Made by a program: the position numbers and the translations under genes. A stretch of DNA of 64,000 nt from Deltaproteobacteria bacterium (lineage in GTDB: Bacteria > Myxococcota_A > UBA9160 > SZUA-336). Below are positions 1-9,997 of the stretch, one piece after another (positions within the stretch are counted from its first letter, which is position 1; the number at the start of each line of letters is the position of its first letter). The notes under the pieces are model-generated. The model ran no database searches and was not told where the DNA came from. It saw only the letters and a list, made by a program, of their open reading frames with translations. Location: positions 5,121 through 69,120 of the forward strand of contig JAFDDB010000004.1 of NCBI GenBank assembly GCA_019311115.1, in the 5' to 3' direction.

Positions 1-647
1 CGCCTGTAGCGCGCGCGAACGCTGGCCATGCGGTCGCTGCGGATCGCCTGGGTCACTTCGGAAGTGAACTCCTCGCTCGACAGGAACGCCGTCTGCTCCG
101 GACGCGCCCCGCGGATGGCGCGGCACAGATGCGACTTGCCCGCTCCGCTCCTTCCCGTAAGCAGCAGCGGACTGCAGTGACCGGCCTCACCGCGCGCGAT
201 CGCCCGCGCGGCTTCCAACGCCAGGACGTTGGCGGGGTCCGCTACGAAGCTGTCGAAGCCGGGCTCGGTCCGCGCCCTCGCGCTGTCGCGCGGGGGCGCC
301 GGCGCCGGAGCCGAACTCCCGTCCGCTCTCGCCCGCCCTTGCGAGGCCGGGCTCGCCACGGACGCGGGAGTCCGCGCCCGTACCGTGGACGCCGGCTCGC
401 GGCAGCCGTGCTCGTCGACACGAAACACCACGTGCTCGACGGCAGCGTCGATGGCGCGCGCGGACTCGAGCAGCACGTTCCCGTGCCGACGCGAGATCCA
501 GTCGCGGCTGAAACGATCCGGACACTTTACGACGAGGCTGCGTCCGTCAACGTCGCCTTCGAGCCCGCTGAACCAGGCGTCGAACGCAGACTGACCTACG
601 CGCGCCCGGACCGCGGTCCGGACGGCCTCCCACCCCCCAGTGAGCAT
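1..647 (-). CDS. dnaA: Chromosomal replication initiator DnaA, N-terminal ~215 aa; C-terminus continues beyond window start
   Basis: Minus-strand frame open from 776 to <1; absent from ORF track because it has no in-window stop. Hand translation: domain I-like WEAVRTAVRARVGQSAFDAWFSGL...LVVKCPDRFSRDWI, then FDSFVADPANVLALEAARAIA, Walker A LLLTGRSGAGKSHL and DnaA-typical FLSSEEFTSEVTQAIRSDRMASVRARYR. ATG at 647-645. Confidence 0.8.
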   Translation of the reverse strand, partial: MLTGGWEAVRTAVRARVGQSAFDAWFSGLEGDVDGRSLVVKCPDRFSRDWISRRHGNVLLESARAIDAAVEHVVFRVDEHGCREPASTVRARTPASVASPASQGRARADGSSAPAPAPPRDSARARTEPGFDSFVADPANVLALEAARAIARGEAGHCSPLLLTGRSGAGKSHLCRAIRGARPEQTAFLSSEEFTSEVTQAIRSDRMASVRARYR

Positions 648-930
648 TCCTGCGATATCTCCCCGTATGAGCCGATCCGCCGGGGTTCCAGCGGAAGGCG
701 ACTCTCCCACGACTTCCGGCCGACGGGCAAACTCGATTCGCGAGAGTTCAGCTTTCGCTTGAGCTTTCGGGCGGCGTCACCGTGGGAGTGGAACGGTTGC
801 GGGCGTGCACCGTCGGAAACGGGGCCCTCTCGCCGGATCCGTGCAACTACGGTTACACCTGTGTGAGACCGGGGCGTTACCGTGCACAGGATTGCACACA
901 GCGAATCGGCACAGCGCAGTGTGGAGCGAT

Positions 931-965
931 CGGCGAATTTCGCGGGAATTCGACGAAATTCGAAC
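931..965. promoter_or_regulatory. Nested palindromic motif cluster CGAATTTCG-cggGAATTCGa-CGAAATTCG in a low-GC region upstream of dnaA
   Basis: Sequence ggcGAATTTCGcgggaattcgaCGAAATTCGaacc; the arms are reverse complements and the centre contains palindromic GAATTC. Sits in the 648-979 AT-richer intergenic island. Confidence 0.4.
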
Positions 966-979
966 CGTTGCTATGTGAT

Positions 980-1648
980 CTAGTTGACGTTCTTGGGAGT
1001 GAAAGAGAGCTGTGACTCGGCCTCGCGGAACTCGAAGAGACGCCCCAGGAGGTGCGCGCGAGACAGTGGGTCGGGCGCTTCGAGCAGGCCCTGCTTCTCG
1101 AGCGGCCCGCAGTCGAGCCCGAAGGCGATCGCGTGCAGCAACGCGATCGGGTCGAGCGCCCGCATGCGGTCGGCGAGCAGGCGCGCCGCGTCGGGCCGGT
1201 GCGTGCGCGCGATCGAGAGCATGCGCCTCTCGAGCTCCCCACGCGCGCGCGTCAAGGTGAAGCGTGTCGCTTCGTCGAGCGCGTCAAACGCCGGGTCGGG
1301 AAGAAGCTCGGCCCGAACACTGCGGTAGGGAGCGTCGGAGTCCTCTTCGCACTCGATGCGGAATCGGCGTTCACCCTCGAGCACGAGCATGAACCGCCCG
1401 TCCGACAGCTCTTCGTGCTTCACGATGCGTCCGAGGCAGCCGGTGTCGAAGATCGGTGCGCAGGTCTCGCGCGGATCGACGTCGGGTTGGAGCAGCACCA
1501 TGCCGATCGCTCCCTCCCCGTCGATCGCGTCGCGCGTCATGGCGCGGTAGCGCGGCTCGAAGATGTGAAGCGGCAGGCGCACGTCCGGGAACAGCACCAC
1601 GTCGGGCAACGGAAAGATCGGGAATCGCGTCGGCAGTGGGGAGTTCAA
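980..1648 (-). CDS. Stand-alone Lon protease N-terminal (substrate-binding) domain protein
   Basis: PIFPLPDVVLFPDVRLPLHIFEPRYRAM matches the LON N-domain signature. ORF track 980..1879. Start is likely TTG at ~1648 (MNSPLPTRFPIFPLP); the upstream part of the ORF is low-complexity. Confidence 0.6.
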   Translation of the reverse strand: MNSPLPTRFPIFPLPDVVLFPDVRLPLHIFEPRYRAMTRDAIDGEGAIGMVLLQPDVDPRETCAPIFDTGCLGRIVKHEELSDGRFMLVLEGERRFRIECEEDSDAPYRSVRAELLPDPAFDALDEATRFTLTRARGELERRMLSIARTHRPDAARLLADRMRALDPIALLHAIAFGLDCGPLEKQGLLEAPDPLSRAHLLGRLFEFREAESQLSFTPKNVN

Positions 1649-1736
1649 CTCGGGCAGGGTATACTGACTTCGCCTTCCCCGGCCAGCGCTCTCGCGCGCC
1701 GATGCGCCCGCTCGCTGGTTCGTTGCGGGGGACCCG

Positions 1737-2300
1737 ATGGCCGGATACGGATCGAGGGGCAGCGCGGGGCGCGGTGAGTCACAGGCCGTGCTTCGGCGGC
1801 TGCGCCAGGACGGGCGGGTGCTGGCGCGCGCCTTCCGCCTGCCGCTGCGTGCGCTCGACGCCGAGCGCGCGAACGTCAAGCGGCGCTATGGCGTCTGCTA
1901 TGAGGATGGGAGCATTCGCATCCGGCTACGTCACGTCCGGACGCGCGAGCTGCTCAGGTACTCCGGGCTCGTGGACACGCTGTGTCATGAACTCGCACAC
2001 CTGCGCCACTTCGATCACGGGCCGCGCTTCCACGTGCTGTACCGCAGGATCCTGACTCACGCCCGGCGCCTCGGGATCTATCGTCCGGCGCCGCGCGCGG
2101 CGGCGTCCGGGCGGCGTCCCAGGAGCGGGGAGGGGCTGGTCCTGCGCGGCTCGTCGATCCTGCCGCTGGTGAGCCTCGAGCCACGGCGCATCCGGCGCCC
2201 TGGAGCGGGTCGGGCACGGCCGGACCCGGATGGACGAGCGGCCCGGGACCCGGGCGCCAGGCAGCGCCCGCGGCCGGAGCAGCTGGAGCTGTTCCGCTAG
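1737..2300 (+). CDS. DUF45/YgjP-like (M48-related) metal-dependent hydrolase
   Basis: HELAHLRHFDHGPRFH motif (HExxH...H...F) typical of the YgjP/DUF45 family. Confidence 0.55.
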   Translation: MAGYGSRGSAGRGESQAVLRRLRQDGRVLARAFRLPLRALDAERANVKRRYGVCYEDGSIRIRLRHVRTRELLRYSGLVDTLCHELAHLRHFDHGPRFHVLYRRILTHARRLGIYRPAPRAAASGRRPRSGEGLVLRGSSILPLVSLEPRRIRRPGAGRARPDPDGRAARDPGARQRPRPEQLELFR

Positions 2301-2314
2301 GTCCGGGGCAGGCC

Positions 2315-2515
2315 TCAGGCCGACTGCTTGTCGAAGTCCTCGAGGGTGTTCGGTCCCTCGATCACCTCGGCGGCGATATCCTCGAGCGCGATCGCCTTGT
2401 CCAGGACCTGCCGCACGAGCTCCGCAACCGTGAGCTCGTCGTACTCCTCGAGCGCGTCTTCGAGAGAAGACTCCTCAAGCGAGATGCTGACGTTGAGCTT
2501 GATGTCGATCGGCAT
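2315..2515 (-). CDS. Small (66 aa) highly acidic hypothetical protein
   Basis: Inner Met of ORF 2315..2677: MPIDIKLNVSISLEESSLEDALEEYDELTVAELVRQVLDKAIALEDIAAEVIEGPNTLEDFDKQSA. Preceded by a low-GC promoter-like island. Confidence 0.45.
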   Translation of the reverse strand: MPIDIKLNVSISLEESSLEDALEEYDELTVAELVRQVLDKAIALEDIAAEVIEGPNTLEDFDKQSA

Positions 2516-2610
2516 GGTTCCTCTGGCCTCCGAGGCGCACGGCCTTCTTTGGGGCGGGGAGTCTAACGTCGCCCGAACGGATTGCCAGCACTTTTTCGCG
2601 GCAAAACCCC

Positions 2611-2650
2611 TGAAATTGCGGCGGTTTGGCCGAATTCGTGCAGAATTCGC
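2611..2650. promoter_or_regulatory. GAAATTGCG / CGAATTCG / GAATTCGC motif cluster in a low-GC island upstream of the acidic protein gene
   Basis: tGAAATTGCGgcggtttggcCGAATTCGtgcaGAATTCGCa; the same motif family as at 931-965. Confidence 0.35.
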
Positions 2651-2693
2651 ACGACTCGCGCCTCGCTGGCGAGGCAAGAAATATCCAGCCCGT

Positions 2694-3713
2694 TCAGCCT
2701 AGAAGCAGCTCCACGCCGATTTCGAGAGCGACCTCGGCCGCGGCCGGGCCGGCGACACTGGGCAGCCGGGCCGCACCGATGGTGCGCCGGAGGATCTCGA
2801 CGCCCGCGTAGCGCCGGGCCAGGGCCACGTCCTCCGCCCTCCCACCCGACCGGCGATAGCCCTCGACCAGGCGCTCCGCGCCGCGGCTCCAGCGCGAGGA
2901 GTTCTCCATGGGCCCGCCCGCTGCGCAGATGAGCAGGTGGGCCAGGGCAGTCCCCAGGTCGAAGGCCGGGTCTCCCACGTGCGCGATCTCGGCGTCGATC
3001 AGCCGCGGCTTGCCGCGCTGCAGCATGACGTTGCCGGGCTGGGGGTCGCCGTGGACCAGAGCCGAGGCCTCGGCGTAGTAGCGCGCGCGCAGCTCCGAGA
3101 TCGCCTCGCGAACACCCGGCCGGGCGAGTCTACGATCGGCGGCCTTTCGGACGGCAGGCTCGAGCGGGAACGCGTCGGGCTCGTAGGGCAGCGCGAAGAT
3201 GTGCTCGCCGTGCAGGCGCCGCATTTCGTCGTTGGCGAACTGTGCCGCCAGCTGTGACGCGCCCTCGCGAGTCGCGGCGTGGACTCTACCCAGGTAAGTG
3301 CCGAGCGCGTCGAGCGCGTCATAGGGAACGTGGCCTGCGTCGAGCGCATCCGAGAGGCGCTCCGAGCCCAGGTCCTCCATCACCAGCACGCGAGAGTCCG
3401 CGTCGAACGCCAGGATGCCCGGAAGGACGGGCGCACACTCCGGTGCGCGCTCTGAGACGCAGGCCGCGTAGCGCCGCTCGAAGACGATTCGCTCGGTCGT
3501 GACGCGGTACTCGGGGAAGCGCTCCAGCGCCTCGCGAGCCTGCTTCACGATCCAGCTCGTGCCGGCATCCGGGCCACCGGTCACGCGCACGCGGCGCACG
3601 TAGTTGATGTTGCCGTCGCCGGCGGGCTCGACCCGGGCGTCCGCGGGTTGCGGAAGCAGTCCTCGGCTCGCAAGGTACTCGGGAAGGTTCTCGTCGGAGA
3701 GCCGCATCGCCAT
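2694..3713 (-). CDS. APH-family phosphotransferase, methylthioribose kinase (MtnK)-like
   Basis: GDGNINYV N-terminal motif, catalytic HGDPQPGNVM, and DAEIAHVGDPAFDLG resembling MtnK/APH kinases. Confidence 0.5.
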   Translation of the reverse strand: MAMRLSDENLPEYLASRGLLPQPADARVEPAGDGNINYVRRVRVTGGPDAGTSWIVKQAREALERFPEYRVTTERIVFERRYAACVSERAPECAPVLPGILAFDADSRVLVMEDLGSERLSDALDAGHVPYDALDALGTYLGRVHAATREGASQLAAQFANDEMRRLHGEHIFALPYEPDAFPLEPAVRKAADRRLARPGVREAISELRARYYAEASALVHGDPQPGNVMLQRGKPRLIDAEIAHVGDPAFDLGTALAHLLICAAGGPMENSSRWSRGAERLVEGYRRSGGRAEDVALARRYAGVEILRRTIGAARLPSVAGPAAAEVALEIGVELLLG

Positions 3714-3734
3714 CGGCAGTACGGGGAGTATGAC

Positions 3735-4298
3735 GTGGGAAGACAGGGCCTGCTGCCGTCCATCCTGGCCTTCGCCGTGCTGCTGGCGGCGAGCGCCTGT
3801 GACCGCCGCGTCGAGCCCTTCGTGGCGCTCGAAGACGAGCCCCCGGCCTCGGAGCGGCCCGTGCGCATCCCGGGTCTCGAGCAGGCCAAGCCGAGCGCTG
3901 CGGTACCGCCGATGGTGCGCCGGGGCAACCCGCCGCCCGGCGGCGAGACGGCGTCGGTACCCGGGGTCGAGATCCGCGGCACGATAGAGCTGGCGCCAGG
4001 CGCACCGGCCGGCGGCGAGGGCGTGTTGTTCGTGATCGCGCGCTCGGGCGCGGGGGGGCCCCCGCTGGCCGTCCGGCGCCTGCCGGTCGGACCGTTCCCG
4101 CTGGAGTTCTCGCTGGGTCCGGGCGACGTGATGATGCAGGGACGCCGCTTCGAGGGAGAGCTGACGCTGACCGCGCGCGTGGACCGCGACGGCAACCCGT
4201 TGACGCGCGGCGAGACCGATCTCTCGGGCAGCGCCCCGGGCCCGGTGACACCGGGCCAGACCGGCATCTCGATCCGGCTCTCGCCGGGCGGCGGCTGA
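3735..4298 (+). CDS. Predicted lipoprotein, hypothetical
   Basis: Probable GTG start with GGGGAG RBS; signal peptide plus lipobox LLAASAC; Gly/Pro-rich mature part. The upstream part of ORF 3648..4298 overlaps the divergent kinase gene. Confidence 0.4.
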   Translation: MGRQGLLPSILAFAVLLAASACDRRVEPFVALEDEPPASERPVRIPGLEQAKPSAAVPPMVRRGNPPPGGETASVPGVEIRGTIELAPGAPAGGEGVLFVIARSGAGGPPLAVRRLPVGPFPLEFSLGPGDVMMQGRRFEGELTLTARVDRDGNPLTRGETDLSGSAPGPVTPGQTGISIRLSPGGG

Positions 4299-4339
4299 TC
4301 GGGCTAAAGGCGTGGCGGATCCACCACGAAGCGGAAGAG

Positions 4340-5336: not shown

Positions 5337-6338
5337 TCAGCGGGTCTCGCAGGCCTGCGACATGCGTCGCACCTTGGGCGAGAAGCGGTCCGGATCCAGC
5401 GTCGCGTCATCGAGCCGCCCGCGCAGCTGCGTCCAGCTGTCGCAGGTCGCCTGCGCGTCATCGAAGGCGACGTGGACCAGCAGAAGGTGGCTGAAGAGGA
5501 TGCGCTGCTGGCGCTCGGTCCCGAAGGCGAGCAGGTCGGGCCGCAGCTCCTCGAGGGTCTCGCGCGCCACGTCGAACTCGCCCTGGTAGTAGGCCTCGAC
5601 CGCATCGGAGAGGACCTGCGTCATGTCTTCCTCGGGGGGTCTTCGCCTGAGGGGCGCCGGCGCGACGGGGGCGGGCGCCTCGGCTGCGGCGAGCGGCTCC
5701 TCGGGTGCCAAGGGCGCGATCGGCGGCTGCGGTGCTGGCGCGGCGGACACCGGGGGGAGTGACCCGGTCGTGGCCGATCCGCCCAGCGGCGCGTCATGCT
5801 CCGGGATGTCTCCGAACACCGGCAGCCGGAGCGCCTGCCGCTCGCCGATGCGGCTCGGGTTGTCGATCCCGTTCAGCAGCGCGAGAGCCGGGATGCGCTC
5901 GGGACTTCCGTACGTGCGCCGCGTCAGCACGGCCATGGTCTCGCCGCGCCGCACGCGGTGATGGAGCAACGCGGGGATCCGCAGTCGCGTCCCGGGCTCC
6001 AGCTTCGCGCCCGCGGGCTCCACGAGCAGCGCCAGCGCCGCCCCGAGCTCCCAGTCTCCCCAGTAACGATCCGCCAGCCCGGACCACTCGTCGCCGTTCG
6101 CGACCGTGTGGTCGTCGGCCAGCGGGATCTCGATGACGCTCCCCGCGCTGAGATGCCCTCGACCCAGCGAGTTGTGCACGCGCAGCGACTCTCCGAGCTC
6201 GGCCACTCCGTAGTAGCGCAGCGCGATCGACTCGAGCGTGTCGCCGGGCGCCGCGTTGTGCACGACCTGACGCGCTGCGGCAGACTGGGGCCACGCCAGC
6301 GTCAAGAGGACGGCGAAGACGAGTCCGGGTCGTGTCAT
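5337..6338 (-). CDS. Secreted LysM-domain protein (two LysM repeats)
   Basis: Signal peptide MTRPGLVFAVLLTLAWPQSAAA; LysM-like HNAAPGDTLESIALRYYG and HHRVRRGETMAVLTRRTYG. Start codon overlaps the upstream gene's stop. Confidence 0.6.
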   Translation of the reverse strand: MTRPGLVFAVLLTLAWPQSAAARQVVHNAAPGDTLESIALRYYGVAELGESLRVHNSLGRGHLSAGSVIEIPLADDHTVANGDEWSGLADRYWGDWELGAALALLVEPAGAKLEPGTRLRIPALLHHRVRRGETMAVLTRRTYGSPERIPALALLNGIDNPSRIGERQALRLPVFGDIPEHDAPLGGSATTGSLPPVSAAPAPQPPIAPLAPEEPLAAAEAPAPVAPAPLRRRPPEEDMTQVLSDAVEAYYQGEFDVARETLEELRPDLLAFGTERQQRILFSHLLLVHVAFDDAQATCDSWTQLRGRLDDATLDPDRFSPKVRRMSQACETR

Positions 6339-7615
6339 TCCGTGCTCCAGGGCGTCTCGCGCGGAATGAACGTGTGACGCAGTGTTCGCCGCTCGCCGGC
6401 GCGTAGCTCGAGCACGCGCCGCACCTCGCCGTGCGACGGGTGGTCGAGCACCACCTCGTGGGGTCCGGGCACCAGCTCCAAGGGCTCGGCCCGCGGTGTG
6501 TAGAAGGGCTCGCGGCCGTCGATCTCGACACGTGCCCACGGGTACACCGCCAGGGTCAGGGTGGCGGCCTGCGGCGGAGGCGGGAGCGCCGCAGACACGG
6601 CCGGAAGCGGCTCGGGCTCAGGGCCGGCGCTCACCCGGCCCAGCAGCACCGCGCCCAGTGCCAGCAGCCCCATCGCGCCGGCGGCCGCCAGCGCACGGTG
6701 GCGGCCCGCGCGGAGCGGCGGCCGGATCTGCATCGCAGGCGGCCTCGCCGGGTCGTCGTCGGCTTCGCCCGGCCGCAGGGACCGGGCCCGGCTGCGCACG
6801 CGGACCTGCCACATCCAGGTCGCGACCTCGGCGCGCTGGGTGCGGGCGTCCACCGGCCCGGCGGCCTCGCGAAGCCGGTGCATGACCTCTGCCAGGTCCG
6901 GGCGCAGCGCCGGTGACGGCGCACGGCAGGCGCGGATCAGCCGCTGCAGGCGGCGTGGCGCGTGGGCCACCTCGGCGTAGGCCGATCCCGGCCGGCGTCC
7001 GCTGACCAGCTCCTCGAGCAGGGCTCCCAGCGAGTGCACGTCGGCCCGGGCATCCACCCGCGCGCCGCGGCCGAGTTCGGGAGCCGCATAGGTGGGGTCG
7101 AGCTCCGAGGCGTCCACCGGCAGCTCGCCGGGCTCGCGGGCGCCGCCGAGTCCGTCCAGCTTCAGCTCTCCCCGACGGCTGACCAGGATGTGCTCCGGCC
7201 GCAGGTCCGTGTGGACCACCGAGTGCAGGTGCAGCTGCTCCAGCGCGACGGCCAGCTCGAGCGTGATGCGGGCCGCCAGCTGGGGCCGCAGGCGTTGGGA
7301 GCCGGTCTCGCGGGCCCGGTCGAGCACCTCGCGGAGCGAGCCCCCGTCCACGTACTCGCGCACCAGGTAGACGTCGCCGTCGCGCGCCAGGCAGTCGAAG
7401 ACCTGGAGCACGTTCGGGTGGGCGATGCGGGCGGCGAAGCGGGCCTCGCGCCAGAAGTGCTCGGCCCGTGGGCCGCTGCGGTCGCGGGGCAGGACGCGGA
7501 CCACGACCTCGCGCTCGAGTCCGCGCTGGCGACCCCGGTACAGATCCGAGCGCCCGGAGTCGAGTGGCTCGTCCACCACCACGCTGCCGATGGCCGTTCC
7601 CCTGGGAATACCCAT
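6335..7615 (-). CDS. Membrane Ser/Thr protein-kinase-like protein with a degenerate catalytic motif and a C-terminal PEGA domain (probable pseudokinase)
   Basis: Kinase fold: VVVRVL in place of VAIK, HTDLRPEH in place of HRDLKPEN, DGL in place of DFG, YAAPE; TM helix ALAAAGAMGLLALGAVLLG; PEGA-like TLTLAVYPWARVEIDGREPFYTPRAEPLELVPGPHEVVL. Confidence 0.65.
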   Translation of the reverse strand: MGIPRGTAIGSVVVDEPLDSGRSDLYRGRQRGLEREVVVRVLPRDRSGPRAEHFWREARFAARIAHPNVLQVFDCLARDGDVYLVREYVDGGSLREVLDRARETGSQRLRPQLAARITLELAVALEQLHLHSVVHTDLRPEHILVSRRGELKLDGLGGAREPGELPVDASELDPTYAAPELGRGARVDARADVHSLGALLEELVSGRRPGSAYAEVAHAPRRLQRLIRACRAPSPALRPDLAEVMHRLREAAGPVDARTQRAEVATWMWQVRVRSRARSLRPGEADDDPARPPAMQIRPPLRAGRHRALAAAGAMGLLALGAVLLGRVSAGPEPEPLPAVSAALPPPPQAATLTLAVYPWARVEIDGREPFYTPRAEPLELVPGPHEVVLDHPSHGEVRRVLELRAGERRTLRHTFIPRETPWSTE

Positions 7616-7664
7616 GGTTCGACGAGCACCATACTGGGCGCAGGAGCCTTGGCAAGGATCCCGC

Positions 7665-9005
7665 TCACTCCGTGGGACGCGGCTCCCCTGGCGGCTCGAG
7701 AGCCCCCGGGATCGAGCGGTAGAGCCAGTAGGCCGCCAGGTAGTCGAGCCCCGTGTAGCCGCGCTCCGGATCGTCCCGCCCATCGAGCCGGTACGGGTTC
7801 GACTTCCACTCGAAGCTGCTCCGCGGCCGGTCCGCGATGGGCACGATCACCGATGCCTGCGCCCTCCACTTGCGGCCGGGGATCCACCGCCGGGGCAGGG
7901 CCGCCAGCCGTTCGGGCGAGGGAATCACGGCACGCTTGTCGATCGGGAAGTCCTCGAGCACGGCGCGGCCGGCAGCCAGGGCCGCGCGATCGCAGGACTC
8001 GGGCTCGATCCGGCAGAGCAGGGCGGCGAAGTAGGCGTTGGGCTCGCCCCGGCCGCGCAGCCGCGCGCGGTGCAGGCCGTGGCGCAGCTCCGCCAGGGCC
8101 GGGTCCCCGTTGCGCCGCGCGATCGGCACCAGCGCGCGGTACAGGTTCCAGCTCATCAGGTCGTTCGAGTAGTTCGTCACGCCGAGGATCCGCAGGTTGG
8201 TGCGGCGGCTGCGCGCGGGAACGCGGAGGCGGTCGCGCAGCCGGTCGCGCTGGTGCGCCCAGCGCGGGTCGGGATCGAGCTCGGCCGCTAGCACGAACGC
8301 GGCCCATCCCGTCAGCTGGAAGATCGAGTTGAAGCCCGCCCCCGAGCGGTACGACAGGTCGCCGAAGCGCGTCTGCACGCCGCGTGCGTCGACCAGCCGC
8401 ATGTCGTTGCGGACCAGGTGCGAGGCGAAGTCGACCGCGAGTCTCCGCGTGCGCTCGGGAAACAGGTCCGCGCACTCCGCTATGGCGGGCACCAGCCCGC
8501 TCGCGTACTGGTCGGCGGACACGTCGGCCCGGTACACGTAGCGCTCGAAGCCCGGCGCCCCCGGCAGCCAGGGCCGGTCCTGCGGTGGCATCACGAGGCC
8601 CTCGTCGCGGCGCACGCCGCGCGCCATCAGGCCCTGCACGCCGGTCACGTCCATCAGGAAACGCAGCCCGTCGAGGGCACGGCGAGCGTCGGCCATGGCC
8701 GCGGCACGCTCGGGCCCCGCGGGCTCGACGCGCGCGCGCGTGCAGGACGTGGCTGCCCAGCTGCCGTTGAAGAAGGGCGTGTCGGCCAGGCGCGGATACG
8801 TGCCGCGCGCCAGGTCGTCCTCCCACGTCGGCAGGTGGATCTTGTAGATCACGAGTCCTTCACGCGACACGTGGCGCTCGTGCAGCGCAGCACGGAACAG
8901 CCTCGCCTTCTCCGCCAACTCGAGCGTCGCAGCGCCGACTTCGGCCACGGGCAGGGCGGCGCCGGCCGGGGTCAGCAGGAGGACGAGCAGCAGCCGCGCG
9001 ATCAT
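7665..9005 (-). CDS. Secreted hypothetical protein (~446 aa)
   Basis: Signal peptide MIARLLLVLLLTPAGAALP; no recognisable family; same strand and tightly spaced with flanking genes. Confidence 0.45.
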   Translation of the reverse strand: MIARLLLVLLLTPAGAALPVAEVGAATLELAEKARLFRAALHERHVSREGLVIYKIHLPTWEDDLARGTYPRLADTPFFNGSWAATSCTRARVEPAGPERAAAMADARRALDGLRFLMDVTGVQGLMARGVRRDEGLVMPPQDRPWLPGAPGFERYVYRADVSADQYASGLVPAIAECADLFPERTRRLAVDFASHLVRNDMRLVDARGVQTRFGDLSYRSGAGFNSIFQLTGWAAFVLAAELDPDPRWAHQRDRLRDRLRVPARSRRTNLRILGVTNYSNDLMSWNLYRALVPIARRNGDPALAELRHGLHRARLRGRGEPNAYFAALLCRIEPESCDRAALAAGRAVLEDFPIDKRAVIPSPERLAALPRRWIPGRKWRAQASVIVPIADRPRSSFEWKSNPYRLDGRDDPERGYTGLDYLAAYWLYRSIPGALEPPGEPRPTE

Positions 9006-9997
9006 CGCCCGCTGAGTTCGTCGGCCAGGTCGCGCGCCTCGTCGAGACGGGGGTCGCCCGCCGAGGCGTCCCGATCGTACGCGCCCCGGTACTCGATGGG
9101 CAGCGTGTCCGCGATCAGGTAGCCCACGATGTGCATCGCGCGCTCGCGGCGCCCCCCTGCGCGCTCGAGCAGCTTCGCGGCGGGAACCGGCACGCCGATC
9201 CGGCCACGTACGATGCAGGGGTGCGCGTGGTCTTCCTCGAGCGGGACGAGCTTCTCGCACCCGGCGAGTCCGAACGGAACGACCACCGCGTCTGGGTGTC
9301 CGAGATACCGGGCCACCGCCGCGAGACAGGGCTGCATCGCACCGTCGCGGCTGCGCGAGCCTTCGGGAAAGACCAGCAGGTGCTCGCCCGCCTTCAGGCG
9401 CTCGTCCGCCGCCTCGAAGATCCCGCGAGCGATCTTCGCGACCTCGCGCGCCGACATCACCGCCTCGCCTGACGCGCGGCTCGTGCTCTGGGGCATCTTG
9501 ATCGTGCCGAACGTCATGCTGGCGAGCCTGCGCACTGGATGGGTGTAGACCTTGGGACCGACCAGCGTCGTGAGAATGCTCGACACGTCGCCGTAGCCGG
9601 CGTCGGCCATCAGGTAGTCGAGCACGTTCACGTCGACGAACGACAGGTGGTTGCCCAGGAATACCGCGGGCCGCTCCCTGGCCACGTCGAGCCGCCCGGT
9701 ATCGTCGAGCGCGGAGCCGTCGAGCACGACCCTGCCCATGATCGCTCGCGACACGCTGCGCGCCAGTGGGTCGGAAGGGTGGAATCCCCAGGTCGCCCCG
9801 GTCTTTCGCGCGCGCTGCAGGAAGGCCTCGAAGCCGGCCTCGCCGTAGTCACTCGTGCACGCGTCGATGAGTGAGTACAGGTCCGGCGCGTCGCCGGCAC
9901 CCCAGTCGCTCAGCAGGCGGGACATCTGCGACACGAGACCCGCGCGGTCGAGGGCGATGTCGCTGGCTTCCGGGGACGTGGCCATGGCCGCGAGCAT
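9002..9997 (-). CDS. PlsC/LPLAT-family acyltransferase (1-acylglycerol-3-phosphate acyltransferase-like)
   Basis: HxxxxD box FLGNHLSFVDVNV and FPEGSRS motif; ~110-aa N-terminal extension; stop overlaps the next gene's start. Confidence 0.65.
   Translation of the reverse strand: MLAAMATSPEASDIALDRAGLVSQMSRLLSDWGAGDAPDLYSLIDACTSDYGEAGFEAFLQRARKTGATWGFHPSDPLARSVSRAIMGRVVLDGSALDDTGRLDVARERPAVFLGNHLSFVDVNVLDYLMADAGYGDVSSILTTLVGPKVYTHPVRRLASMTFGTIKMPQSTSRASGEAVMSAREVAKIARGIFEAADERLKAGEHLLVFPEGSRSRDGAMQPCLAAVARYLGHPDAVVVPFGLAGCEKLVPLEEDHAHPCIVRGRIGVPVPAAKLLERAGGRRERAMHIVGYLIADTLPIEYRGAYDRDASAGDPRLDEARDLADELSGR

Follow-up and report, generated by a model that had tools for sequence, protein, structure and literature searches.

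The window analysed here is a stretch of 64,000 nucleotides from Deltaproteobacteria bacterium (GenBank assembly GCA_019311115.1, contig JAFDDB010000004.1, positions 5,121 to 69,120; Myxococcota_A in the GTDB lineage). Near its start four genes are found on the minus strand in the order PlsC-type acyltransferase, an orphan protein of 446 residues, a Hanks-type kinase-like protein and a LysM protein of 333 residues, with 49 nucleotides separating the second gene from the third. The third gene (6335-7615) encodes 426 residues, and its product is identical to MBW2413159.1, which in GenBank is labelled 'MAG: serine/threonine protein kinase [Deltaproteobacteria bacterium]' and nothing more. The motifs of this protein place it among the pseudokinases, and it is probably a functional transmembrane protein that acts together with its LysM neighbour.

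The open reading frame found mechanically for the pseudokinase runs from 6335 to 7783, and the extension past 7615 runs into the 3' end of the upstream gene and is not conserved. The start codon is placed at the ATG at 7615 because the upstream gene stops at 7665, because all nine orthologue clusters share an N-terminus of the form M-G/T/I-I/L-P, and because the GenBank product is identical. The G+C content is about 71% for the window and 74% for the pseudokinase gene; at the former value spurious open reading frames crowd every frame.

Residues 24-215 match the Pfam family Pkinase with an E-value of 1.3e-29 and 103.8 bits, the cut-off being 31.7 bits, and the closest sequence match in PDB is PknB from Mycobacterium tuberculosis (1.6e-21). 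An AlphaFold2 model, made with a MAFFT alignment of 65 sequences as input, has a mean predicted local distance difference test score (pLDDT) of 87.9, and the score exceeds 90 over residues 1-280. The top Foldseek matches of the model are MST, Aurora, and PAK kinases, with E-values around 1e-16 and template modelling scores on the target of 0.7-0.8. The catalytic motifs were assigned using a residue-by-residue alignment with PknB together with the same 65-sequence alignment, and all codon coordinates were verified by translation (Table 1).

The VAVK of strand β3 in PknB corresponds to VVVR, where the arginine is R40. The catalytic loop HRDVKPAN of PknB corresponds to HTDLRPEH (H135-H142), in which D137 is the retained HRD aspartate, while the Gly-rich loop GFGGMSEV corresponds to LDSGRSDL, so that the glycine motif is lost. 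The αC glutamate E57, the αF aspartate, and R238 are kept, and the SPE of PknB is APE at residues 178-180. The segments KVMDFGIAR of PknB and KLDGLGGAR of the pseudokinase align without gaps. The DFG position is therefore occupied by G155-L156-G157, D154 is the DFG-1 residue, and the metal-binding aspartate is absent. D154 was considered as the DFG aspartate itself and rejected on account of this gap-free alignment and because it is not conserved beyond the nearest subclade. All 56 of the kinase homologues in the 65-sequence alignment that lie outside the family keep the β3 lysine, the HRD/HCD aspartate, the catalytic-loop asparagine, and the DFG/DLG aspartate. The deviations are thus specific to the pseudokinase and are not alignment noise.

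When it comes to the residues needed for catalytic competence, the HRD aspartate is present, whereas the β3 lysine, the catalytic-loop lysine and asparagine, the DFG aspartate, and the GxGxxG motif (here LDSGRS) are missing. A pseudokinase is defined by sequence as lacking at least one of the VAIK lysine, the HRD aspartate, and the DFG aspartate (bioRxiv 10.1101/2025.01.12.632604; PMC12599244). By this definition MBW2413159.1 is a pseudokinase, two of its three triad residues, the VAIK lysine and the DFG aspartate, being gone. The alanine-to-valine change in VAIK might suggest loss of the catalytic spine; it was dropped as a sign against ATP binding, as the active sister kinases carry valine too.

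An earlier note on this DNA, made from the letters and the open reading frames, had proposed a kept kinase fold and APE motif combined with arginine for the β3 lysine, HTD for HRD, and arginine and histidine for the lysine and asparagine of the catalytic loop. The fold scores bear out the first part, and both alignments place R40, T136, R139, and H142 at the substituted positions and A178-P-E180 opposite the SPE of PknB; neither alignment gives this protein a β3 lysine. Only its reading of DFG as 'DGL' needs correction, since this is shifted by one residue. The note had left the choice between a pseudokinase and an atypical mechanism open. With two of the three triad residues missing this prediction is supported, and the family-wide data favour the pseudokinase branch.

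A word-indexed search for relatives gave nine clusters of equal length and 40-100% identity, below which the scores fall to generic kinases. When 1.84 billion representatives were searched exhaustively with a profile, many further full-length matches in a single stretch, 390-460 residues long, came to light, and the pseudokinase clade, recognized by the β3 arginine and GLG, comprises at least 31 clusters at 50% identity with the full architecture. A scan of genome contigs with the family alignment, which picked the generic kinase motif, returned only ordinary kinases of 30-38% identity. The residue frequencies of the family given here are counts over 40 aligned representatives, seven of which are fully canonical. 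The β3 residue is arginine in 28 and lysine in nine, and the position of the DFG aspartate is glycine in 30, the motif being mostly GLG. The HRD aspartate is present in 26, and G, A, N, Q, or L is found in the other 14. At the catalytic-loop asparagine the family shows N, H, R, K, T, Q, or L, with about half of the sequences having another residue than asparagine. D154 is confined to the six closest clusters (6/40) and is replaced by A, R, T, K, S, or G elsewhere, and the Gly-rich loop varies in both sequence and length, with insertions and deletions. E57, H135, P140, the APE motif, D192, and R238, on the other hand, are invariant or nearly so. The seven canonical representatives display the motifs GGMG, VxLK, HRDLKPAN, and DFG; the C-terminal signature PWAE...HP..G is present as well in four of these (P0151, P0152, P0164, and P0209).

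Lysine depletion is extreme in the pseudokinase, which contains a single lysine, K152, and 61 arginines among its 426 residues. K152 is invariant in the nine close orthologues and kept in 36 of the 40 family representatives. Drift from lysine to arginine driven by a high G+C content was rejected as a sufficient cause of R40, since GC-rich kinases from Streptomyces and other Actinomycetota keep the β3 lysine and since K152 is invariant.

A rough tree of the kinase domain, calculated by neighbour joining without support values, places the canonical group as sister to a single pseudokinase clade. The simplest history would be that this clade arose from an active ancestor composed of kinase domain, transmembrane helix, and PEGA domain through one loss of the DFG aspartate together with the change from lysine to arginine, followed by relaxed constraint. 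The ratio of nonsynonymous to synonymous substitutions (dN/dS), estimated by the Nei-Gojobori method, lies at 0.09-0.26 in the kinase-like domain and 0.09-0.30 in the PEGA domain, compared with 0.35-0.61 in the linker and transmembrane region. The low values in the two domains indicate purifying selection and show that the gene is not decaying. The pseudokinases thus constitute a conserved family, and it is carried by uncultured Myxococcota.

The pseudokinase contains one hydrophobic segment, residues 308-326 (Kyte-Doolittle score 2.1), which the model shows as a helix at residues 306-325. Five arginine or lysine residues flank the segment on the N-terminal side and none on the C-terminal side. 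This charge bias and the model helix predict that the kinase-like domain is cytoplasmic and that the C-terminus is periplasmic, and the membrane anchoring proposed in the earlier note accordingly stands. The PEGA domain of the same note needs a qualification. The single sequence misses the Pfam threshold for PEGA (PF08308), with E=0.28 and 11.5 bits against 20.8, and weak matches are seen in six of the nine orthologues, the best family member having an E-value of 0.0053. However, when a profile of the C-terminal domain of the family was compared by hhalign with a profile of true PEGA domains, consisting of threshold-passing domains from other kinases, the probability was 98.4% (E=8e-15, 61 columns). 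The model displays a small β-domain with strands at residues 351-415 and pLDDT above 90. The domain is accepted as PEGA at the profile level.

The gene following the pseudokinase encodes a protein with a signal peptide, three LysM units, a variable Pro/Ala linker, and a conserved helical domain. LysM (PF01476) is matched with 39.6 bits, the Pfam cut-off being 20.9. The model of this protein contains three β-α-α-β units with pLDDT around 90 and a five-helix domain, and Foldseek matches it to Ecp6, OsCEBiP, CHIP13, and the ectodomains of NFP and LYS11, and more weakly to TPR proteins. The TPR likeness of the C-terminal domain consists in these weak structural matches; the domain contains two invariant cysteines, C299 and C330, consistent with a periplasmic disulfide. 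The ATG of the LysM gene overlaps the stop codon of the pseudokinase gene (GAATGA), and an (A/G)TGA overlap between the two is found in all ten loci compared, that is, the window and nine related ones. The stop codon of the acyltransferase gene and the start codon of the orphan gene overlap in the same way, and the two ATGA overlaps point to translational coupling within the four-gene cluster. The distant Myxococcota contigs L091 and L092 retain an intact acyltransferase-orphan block with intact flanks but lack both the pseudokinase gene and the LysM gene. The overlap in every locus and the joint absence from these two contigs identify the pseudokinase and LysM genes as a two-gene unit. The idea that the acyltransferase and the orphan are obligatory partners was rejected, as both persist in L091 and L092 without the pair.

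Table 1. Features of the pseudokinase locus. Positions are those of the window, except in the last row, where they refer to the related contigs named.
Feature	Position	Strand	Basis or remark
Pseudokinase gene (kinase-like domain, transmembrane helix, PEGA domain)	6335..7615	-	Start backed by N-terminal conservation in nine orthologue clusters
Cytoplasmic Hanks-type kinase-like domain and juxtamembrane helix, residues 1-280	6776..7615	-	Pfam, PknB, AlphaFold2, Foldseek, dN/dS
Degenerate Gly-rich loop PLDSGRSDLY (canonical GxGxxGxV)	7538..7567	-	Alignments; insertions and deletions across the family
Arg40 replacing the β3 (VAIK) lysine	7496..7498	-	Alignments; Arg in 28/40 family representatives
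Glu57, the αC glutamate, kept	7445..7447	-	Alignments; 37/40 family representatives
Catalytic loop HTDLRPEH (canonical HRDxKxxN)	7190..7213	-	R to T136, Asp137 kept, K to R139, N to H142
D154 (DFG-1) followed by G155-L156-G157 at the DFG position	7145..7156	-	Gap-free PknB alignment; family alignment
APE motif A178-P179-E180, kept	7076..7084	-	Alignments
Single transmembrane helix, residues 308-326, predicted N-in/C-out	6638..6694	-	Hydropathy, charge bias, model helix
Periplasmic PEGA-type β-domain, residues 346-420	6356..6580	-	Profile comparison, model, dN/dS
Partner gene, secreted 333-residue LysM/TPR-like protein	5337..6338	-	ATGA start/stop overlap with the pseudokinase gene (6335-6338)
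Three LysM units of the partner protein	5817-6269	-	Pfam, model
TPR-like helical domain of the partner protein, two invariant Cys	5343-5633	-	Alignment, model
Upstream orphan gene, 446 residues, signal-peptide-like N-terminus	7665..9005	-	Syntenic neighbour
PlsC-type acyltransferase gene, first of the co-directional cluster	9002..9997	-	ATGA overlap with the orphan gene (9002-9005)
Orphan genes bearing an FHA domain in basal relatives	L002:6199-7974, L003:2116-3891, L004:6221-7963		

The orphan protein encoded upstream of the pseudokinase has four invariant cysteines, and searches of Pfam, NCBIfam, and PDB by sequence or profile gave no match for it. It is found in at least 120 clusters, 50-100% identical, from metagenome-assembled genomes of uncultured Myxococcota, all of them labelled 'hypothetical'. 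Its conservation exceeds that of the pseudokinase, it also occurs in loci that do not have the latter, and a functional tie between the two is uncertain. Three relatives of basal position (L002, L003, and L004) have an orphan that is 60% identical to that of the window and is extended at its C-terminus by an FHA domain, the end of which lies immediately ahead of the pseudokinase gene. In a further locus, L005, an internal deletion and a frameshift have reduced the orphan gene to fragments (6900-8000), while the FHA frame, the pseudokinase gene, and the LysM gene are intact. This suggests that in the L005 lineage the selected unit is formed by the FHA, pseudokinase, and LysM genes rather than by the orphan. 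The serine, asparagine, and threonine at three positions of an FHA domain normally contact phosphothreonine. Compared with GarA, the FHA domain of L004 keeps the Gly-Arg and the histidine, but these three residues are replaced by glutamate, alanine, and leucine. It is odd to find an FHA domain on a protein whose N-terminus resembles a signal peptide.

We favour, with moderate confidence, the reading that the protein is a functional, conserved, and catalytically inactive Hanks-type pseudokinase that serves as a transmembrane scaffold or sensor together with its LysM partner. The LysM protein would bind peptidoglycan or glycan fragments in the periplasm and might dock onto the PEGA ectodomain through its TPR-like domain. 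The pseudokinase domain would then relay this state without phosphotransfer, either as a scaffold or as an allosteric partner. On the cytoplasmic side it could act on a degenerate FHA domain, which is encoded upstream in the basal relatives and would have been lost in the window lineage, on an active Hanks kinase encoded elsewhere, or on both. Once the DFG aspartate was lost and the β3 arginine acquired, the HRD aspartate, the catalytic-loop lysine and asparagine, and the Gly-rich loop would have been free to drift, while the elements that form the fold and presumably the interaction surfaces, namely the αC glutamate, the HRD histidine, the APE glutamate with R238, and the αF aspartate, stayed fixed. 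There are precedents for such an arrangement. MviN is a scaffold with a pseudokinase domain, a transmembrane part, and an ectodomain, and it binds the FHA protein FhaA (PMC12599244). The YukC/EssB-YukB system provides another; YukC is unable to bind ATP, and its pseudokinase domain makes direct contact with FHA domains (PMC9600267).

Several points weigh against this reading. The absence of phosphotransfer is deduced from sequence alone, and the sister relationship on which the proposed origin builds comes from the tree that lacks support values. Gene adjacency and co-inheritance do not prove that the PEGA domain and the LysM/TPR-like protein bind each other. Within the 64 kb of the window neither an FHA domain nor a second kinase is found, which leaves no cytoplasmic partner there. 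In addition, the subclade of the window keeps D137, an acidic residue (D154) beside the DFG position, and a strongly conserved β3 arginine, and some pseudokinases with a β3 arginine bind nucleotide, as is the case for KSR1 and EphB6 and for the models of ActPs2 and DYD (bioRxiv 10.1101/2025.01.12.632604; PMC12599244).

According to one rather unlikely alternative, the protein could be an allosteric partner or decoy of an active Hanks kinase encoded elsewhere, with which it would form a back-to-back heterodimer through the N-lobe as seen for PknB and MviN, the LysM gene being merely co-transcribed and its product making no contact with PEGA. L33 and D74, which align with L33 and D76 of PknB and presumably are the equivalents of residues at the PknB dimer interface, are invariant or nearly so, but they are conserved in ordinary kinases as well and are hence not specific. 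The residues that stabilise the fold are kept, and the MviN pseudokinase does form dimers of this kind (PMC12599244). However, an active kinase is missing from the 64-kb window, and the strict co-inheritance of the pseudokinase and LysM genes, like their translational coupling, speaks against mere co-transcription.

The favoured reading could also be extended, by analogy, into a bacterial counterpart of the plant LysM receptor pseudokinases that is divided between two proteins. The LysM protein would sense peptidoglycan glycans and dock on PEGA, and the pseudokinase would thereby be switched between states that recruit a degenerate, phospho-independent FHA domain or control an active Hanks kinase allosterically. 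We regard this as speculative and improbable.

A still slimmer chance is given to an atypical active enzyme or a nucleotide-binding switch. ATP would then be bound without metal in a pocket lined with arginines (R40, R139, and R22, R27, and R29 of the Gly-rich loop), with D137 acting as base and D154 taking the place of the DFG aspartate. CASK, WNK, and ULK4 are precedents, as are the modelled families DLHK, DYD, and ActPs2, although the exchange of lysine for arginine in β3 is the classical kinase-dead substitution. Such a site is conceivable in the window's own subclade, where D137, D154, R40, and R139 do not vary among the six closest clusters. The β3 arginine, found in 28 of the 40 representatives, is conserved and not drifting, and as E57 is kept an R40-E57 pair is possible. 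Nucleotide binding by β3-arginine pseudokinases and by arginine-rich pockets is also noted in the literature (bioRxiv 10.1101/2025.01.12.632604; PMC12599244). Across the clade the picture is different; the HRD aspartate is replaced in 14 of the 40, D154 varies beyond the nearest subclade, about half of the sequences are substituted at the catalytic-loop asparagine, and the Gly-rich loop is constant in neither sequence nor length. This is hard to reconcile with a catalytic or nucleotide-binding mechanism shared by the clade, because such a mechanism would constrain those very sites.

That the gene is a decaying kinase relic without any function of its own has next to no probability. In its favour are the several catalytic residues that have gone missing and the drift seen at HRD and in the Gly-rich loop, but the evidence of selection and conservation already contradicts a relic, namely the dN/dS of 0.09-0.26 over the kinase-like domain, the intact reading frame in every locus, the full architecture in at least 31 clusters at 50% identity, the invariant structural residues, and the locus L005, where the orphan neighbour has decayed while the pseudokinase is intact.

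Seven families of bacterial pseudokinases were defined in an atlas and a review from 2025, and almost none of them have been studied experimentally (bioRxiv 10.1101/2025.01.12.632604; PMC12599244). The family of the window fits none of the described ones and is apparently unclassified; it is set apart from GLW, ActPs2, ActPs3, DYD, CP1, and DLHK by their published defining features. The seventh family, ActPs1, is described as mainly actinobacterial and with all three catalytic residues substituted (PMC12599244; bioRxiv 10.1101/2025.01.12.632604). The pseudokinase resembles ActPs2 and DYD in having a conserved β3 lysine-to-arginine exchange and a C-terminal transmembrane region. However, the ActPs2 proteins are actinobacterial, have asparagine for the HRD aspartate, a DFG deletion, an insertion of 32 residues between β3 and αC, and another of about 250 residues in the activation loop, while the pseudokinase, from metagenome-assembled genomes of Myxococcota or 'Deltaproteobacteria', keeps D137, has GLG at the DFG position, and aligns one-to-one with PknB without insertions. 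DYD proteins do not have the αC glutamate and carry a DYD motif, whereas E57 is invariant here and the motif is GLG. In the GLW family GLW stands at the HRD position, and the β3 residue is leucine or tryptophan in LLLL/W; the corresponding features of the pseudokinase are HTD and R40, its GLG being found at DFG and not at HRD. CP1 and DLHK are cytosolic and fused to COG3899 or helicase/DNA2 domains, unlike the pseudokinase, which has a transmembrane helix and a PEGA domain and none of those fusion partners.

The likeness to MviN (Rv3910) and ActPs3 is that of a membrane-bound pseudokinase tied to the cell wall; MviN recruits FhaA, and the basal relatives of the pseudokinase encode an FHA domain directly upstream (PMC12599244). 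The ActPs3 proteins are actinobacterial, however, with all three motifs degraded, a deletion in the activation loop, and a fusion to the MviN/MurJ flippase. In the pseudokinase there are 20 residues between GLG and APE, which is normal, the HRD histidine and aspartate and the APE motif are kept, and a flippase is missing, as is an FHA domain in the window lineage. EssB/YukC of type VIIb secretion likewise consists of a cytoplasmic pseudokinase domain, a single transmembrane segment, and an extracellular domain (PMC9600267). By sequence the two are unrelated beyond the fold, and the ectodomain is helical in YukC and a PEGA β-domain here; moreover, the EssB/YukC family was not among the Pfam matches of the pseudokinase, and type VII genes were not found among the neighbours.

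The pseudokinase shares the arrangement of an N-terminal cytoplasmic kinase domain, one transmembrane segment, and a C-terminal ectodomain with the PASTA-type kinases such as PknB and with myxobacterial kinase-transmembrane-PEGA kinases (for instance P0028 from Vitiosangium), and its nearest canonical relatives carry the same PEGA-type domain. The transmembrane Hanks kinases, in contrast, keep the Gly-rich loop, the VAIK lysine, HRDxKxxN, and DFG, whereas the pseudokinase has lost the Gly-rich loop, the lysine, the DFG aspartate, and the lysine and asparagine of the catalytic loop. It also differs from PknB in that the module of a peptidoglycan-binding type, LysM, is found on a separate secreted protein and is not fused to the kinase as PASTA is. 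The plant LysM receptor (pseudo)kinases and proteins, such as NFP/NFR5, LYK5, and CEBiP, combine three tandem LysM units outside the cell with an inactive kinase domain inside. Here LysM and pseudokinase are found on two proteins, the link between them is a presumed one, and the kinase domain is of the PknB type. The resemblance is one of analogy and not of shared descent.

Pseudokinases are common in large bacterial kinomes, and a new example will as such be no surprise to a specialist. The present one adds a conserved family from uncultured Myxococcota to the recently catalogued bacterial pseudokinases. Its clear origin from active kinase-transmembrane-PEGA kinases and its obligatory secreted LysM partner lead to a testable idea, namely that cell-wall glycans are sensed and the signal passed on without phosphotransfer. 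Should the two-protein counterpart of the plant receptors turn out to be real, Myxococcota would possess a relay for cell-wall sensing that is free of phosphotransfer. The annotation of MBW2413159.1 and its relatives as 'serine/threonine protein kinase' is, judging from the motifs, probably wrong when it comes to activity.

The pseudokinase gene block is syntenic across all relatives and is found a few kb from dnaA. Positions 1-4300 of the window encode a protein with a LON substrate-binding domain, a WLM/SprT-like metallopeptidase, and an Ig_CycH protein, and in the relatives L001, L002, and L092 dnaA adjoins this region. The window thus probably begins a few kb from the region of the chromosomal replication origin. 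Beyond the four-gene cluster the other strand carries genes for a methyltransferase, leuC-like aconitases, a Glu/Leu/Phe/Val dehydrogenase, and an Ig_CycH protein. The sole pair of sigma-70-like hexamers between 4200 and 10300 is TTGCCA-16-TATGGT (7628-7655, minus strand), which matches the consensus at nine of 12 positions and is situated inside the 49-nucleotide gap upstream of the pseudokinase gene. Going by this consensus match, it may be an internal promoter of the pseudokinase-LysM pair.

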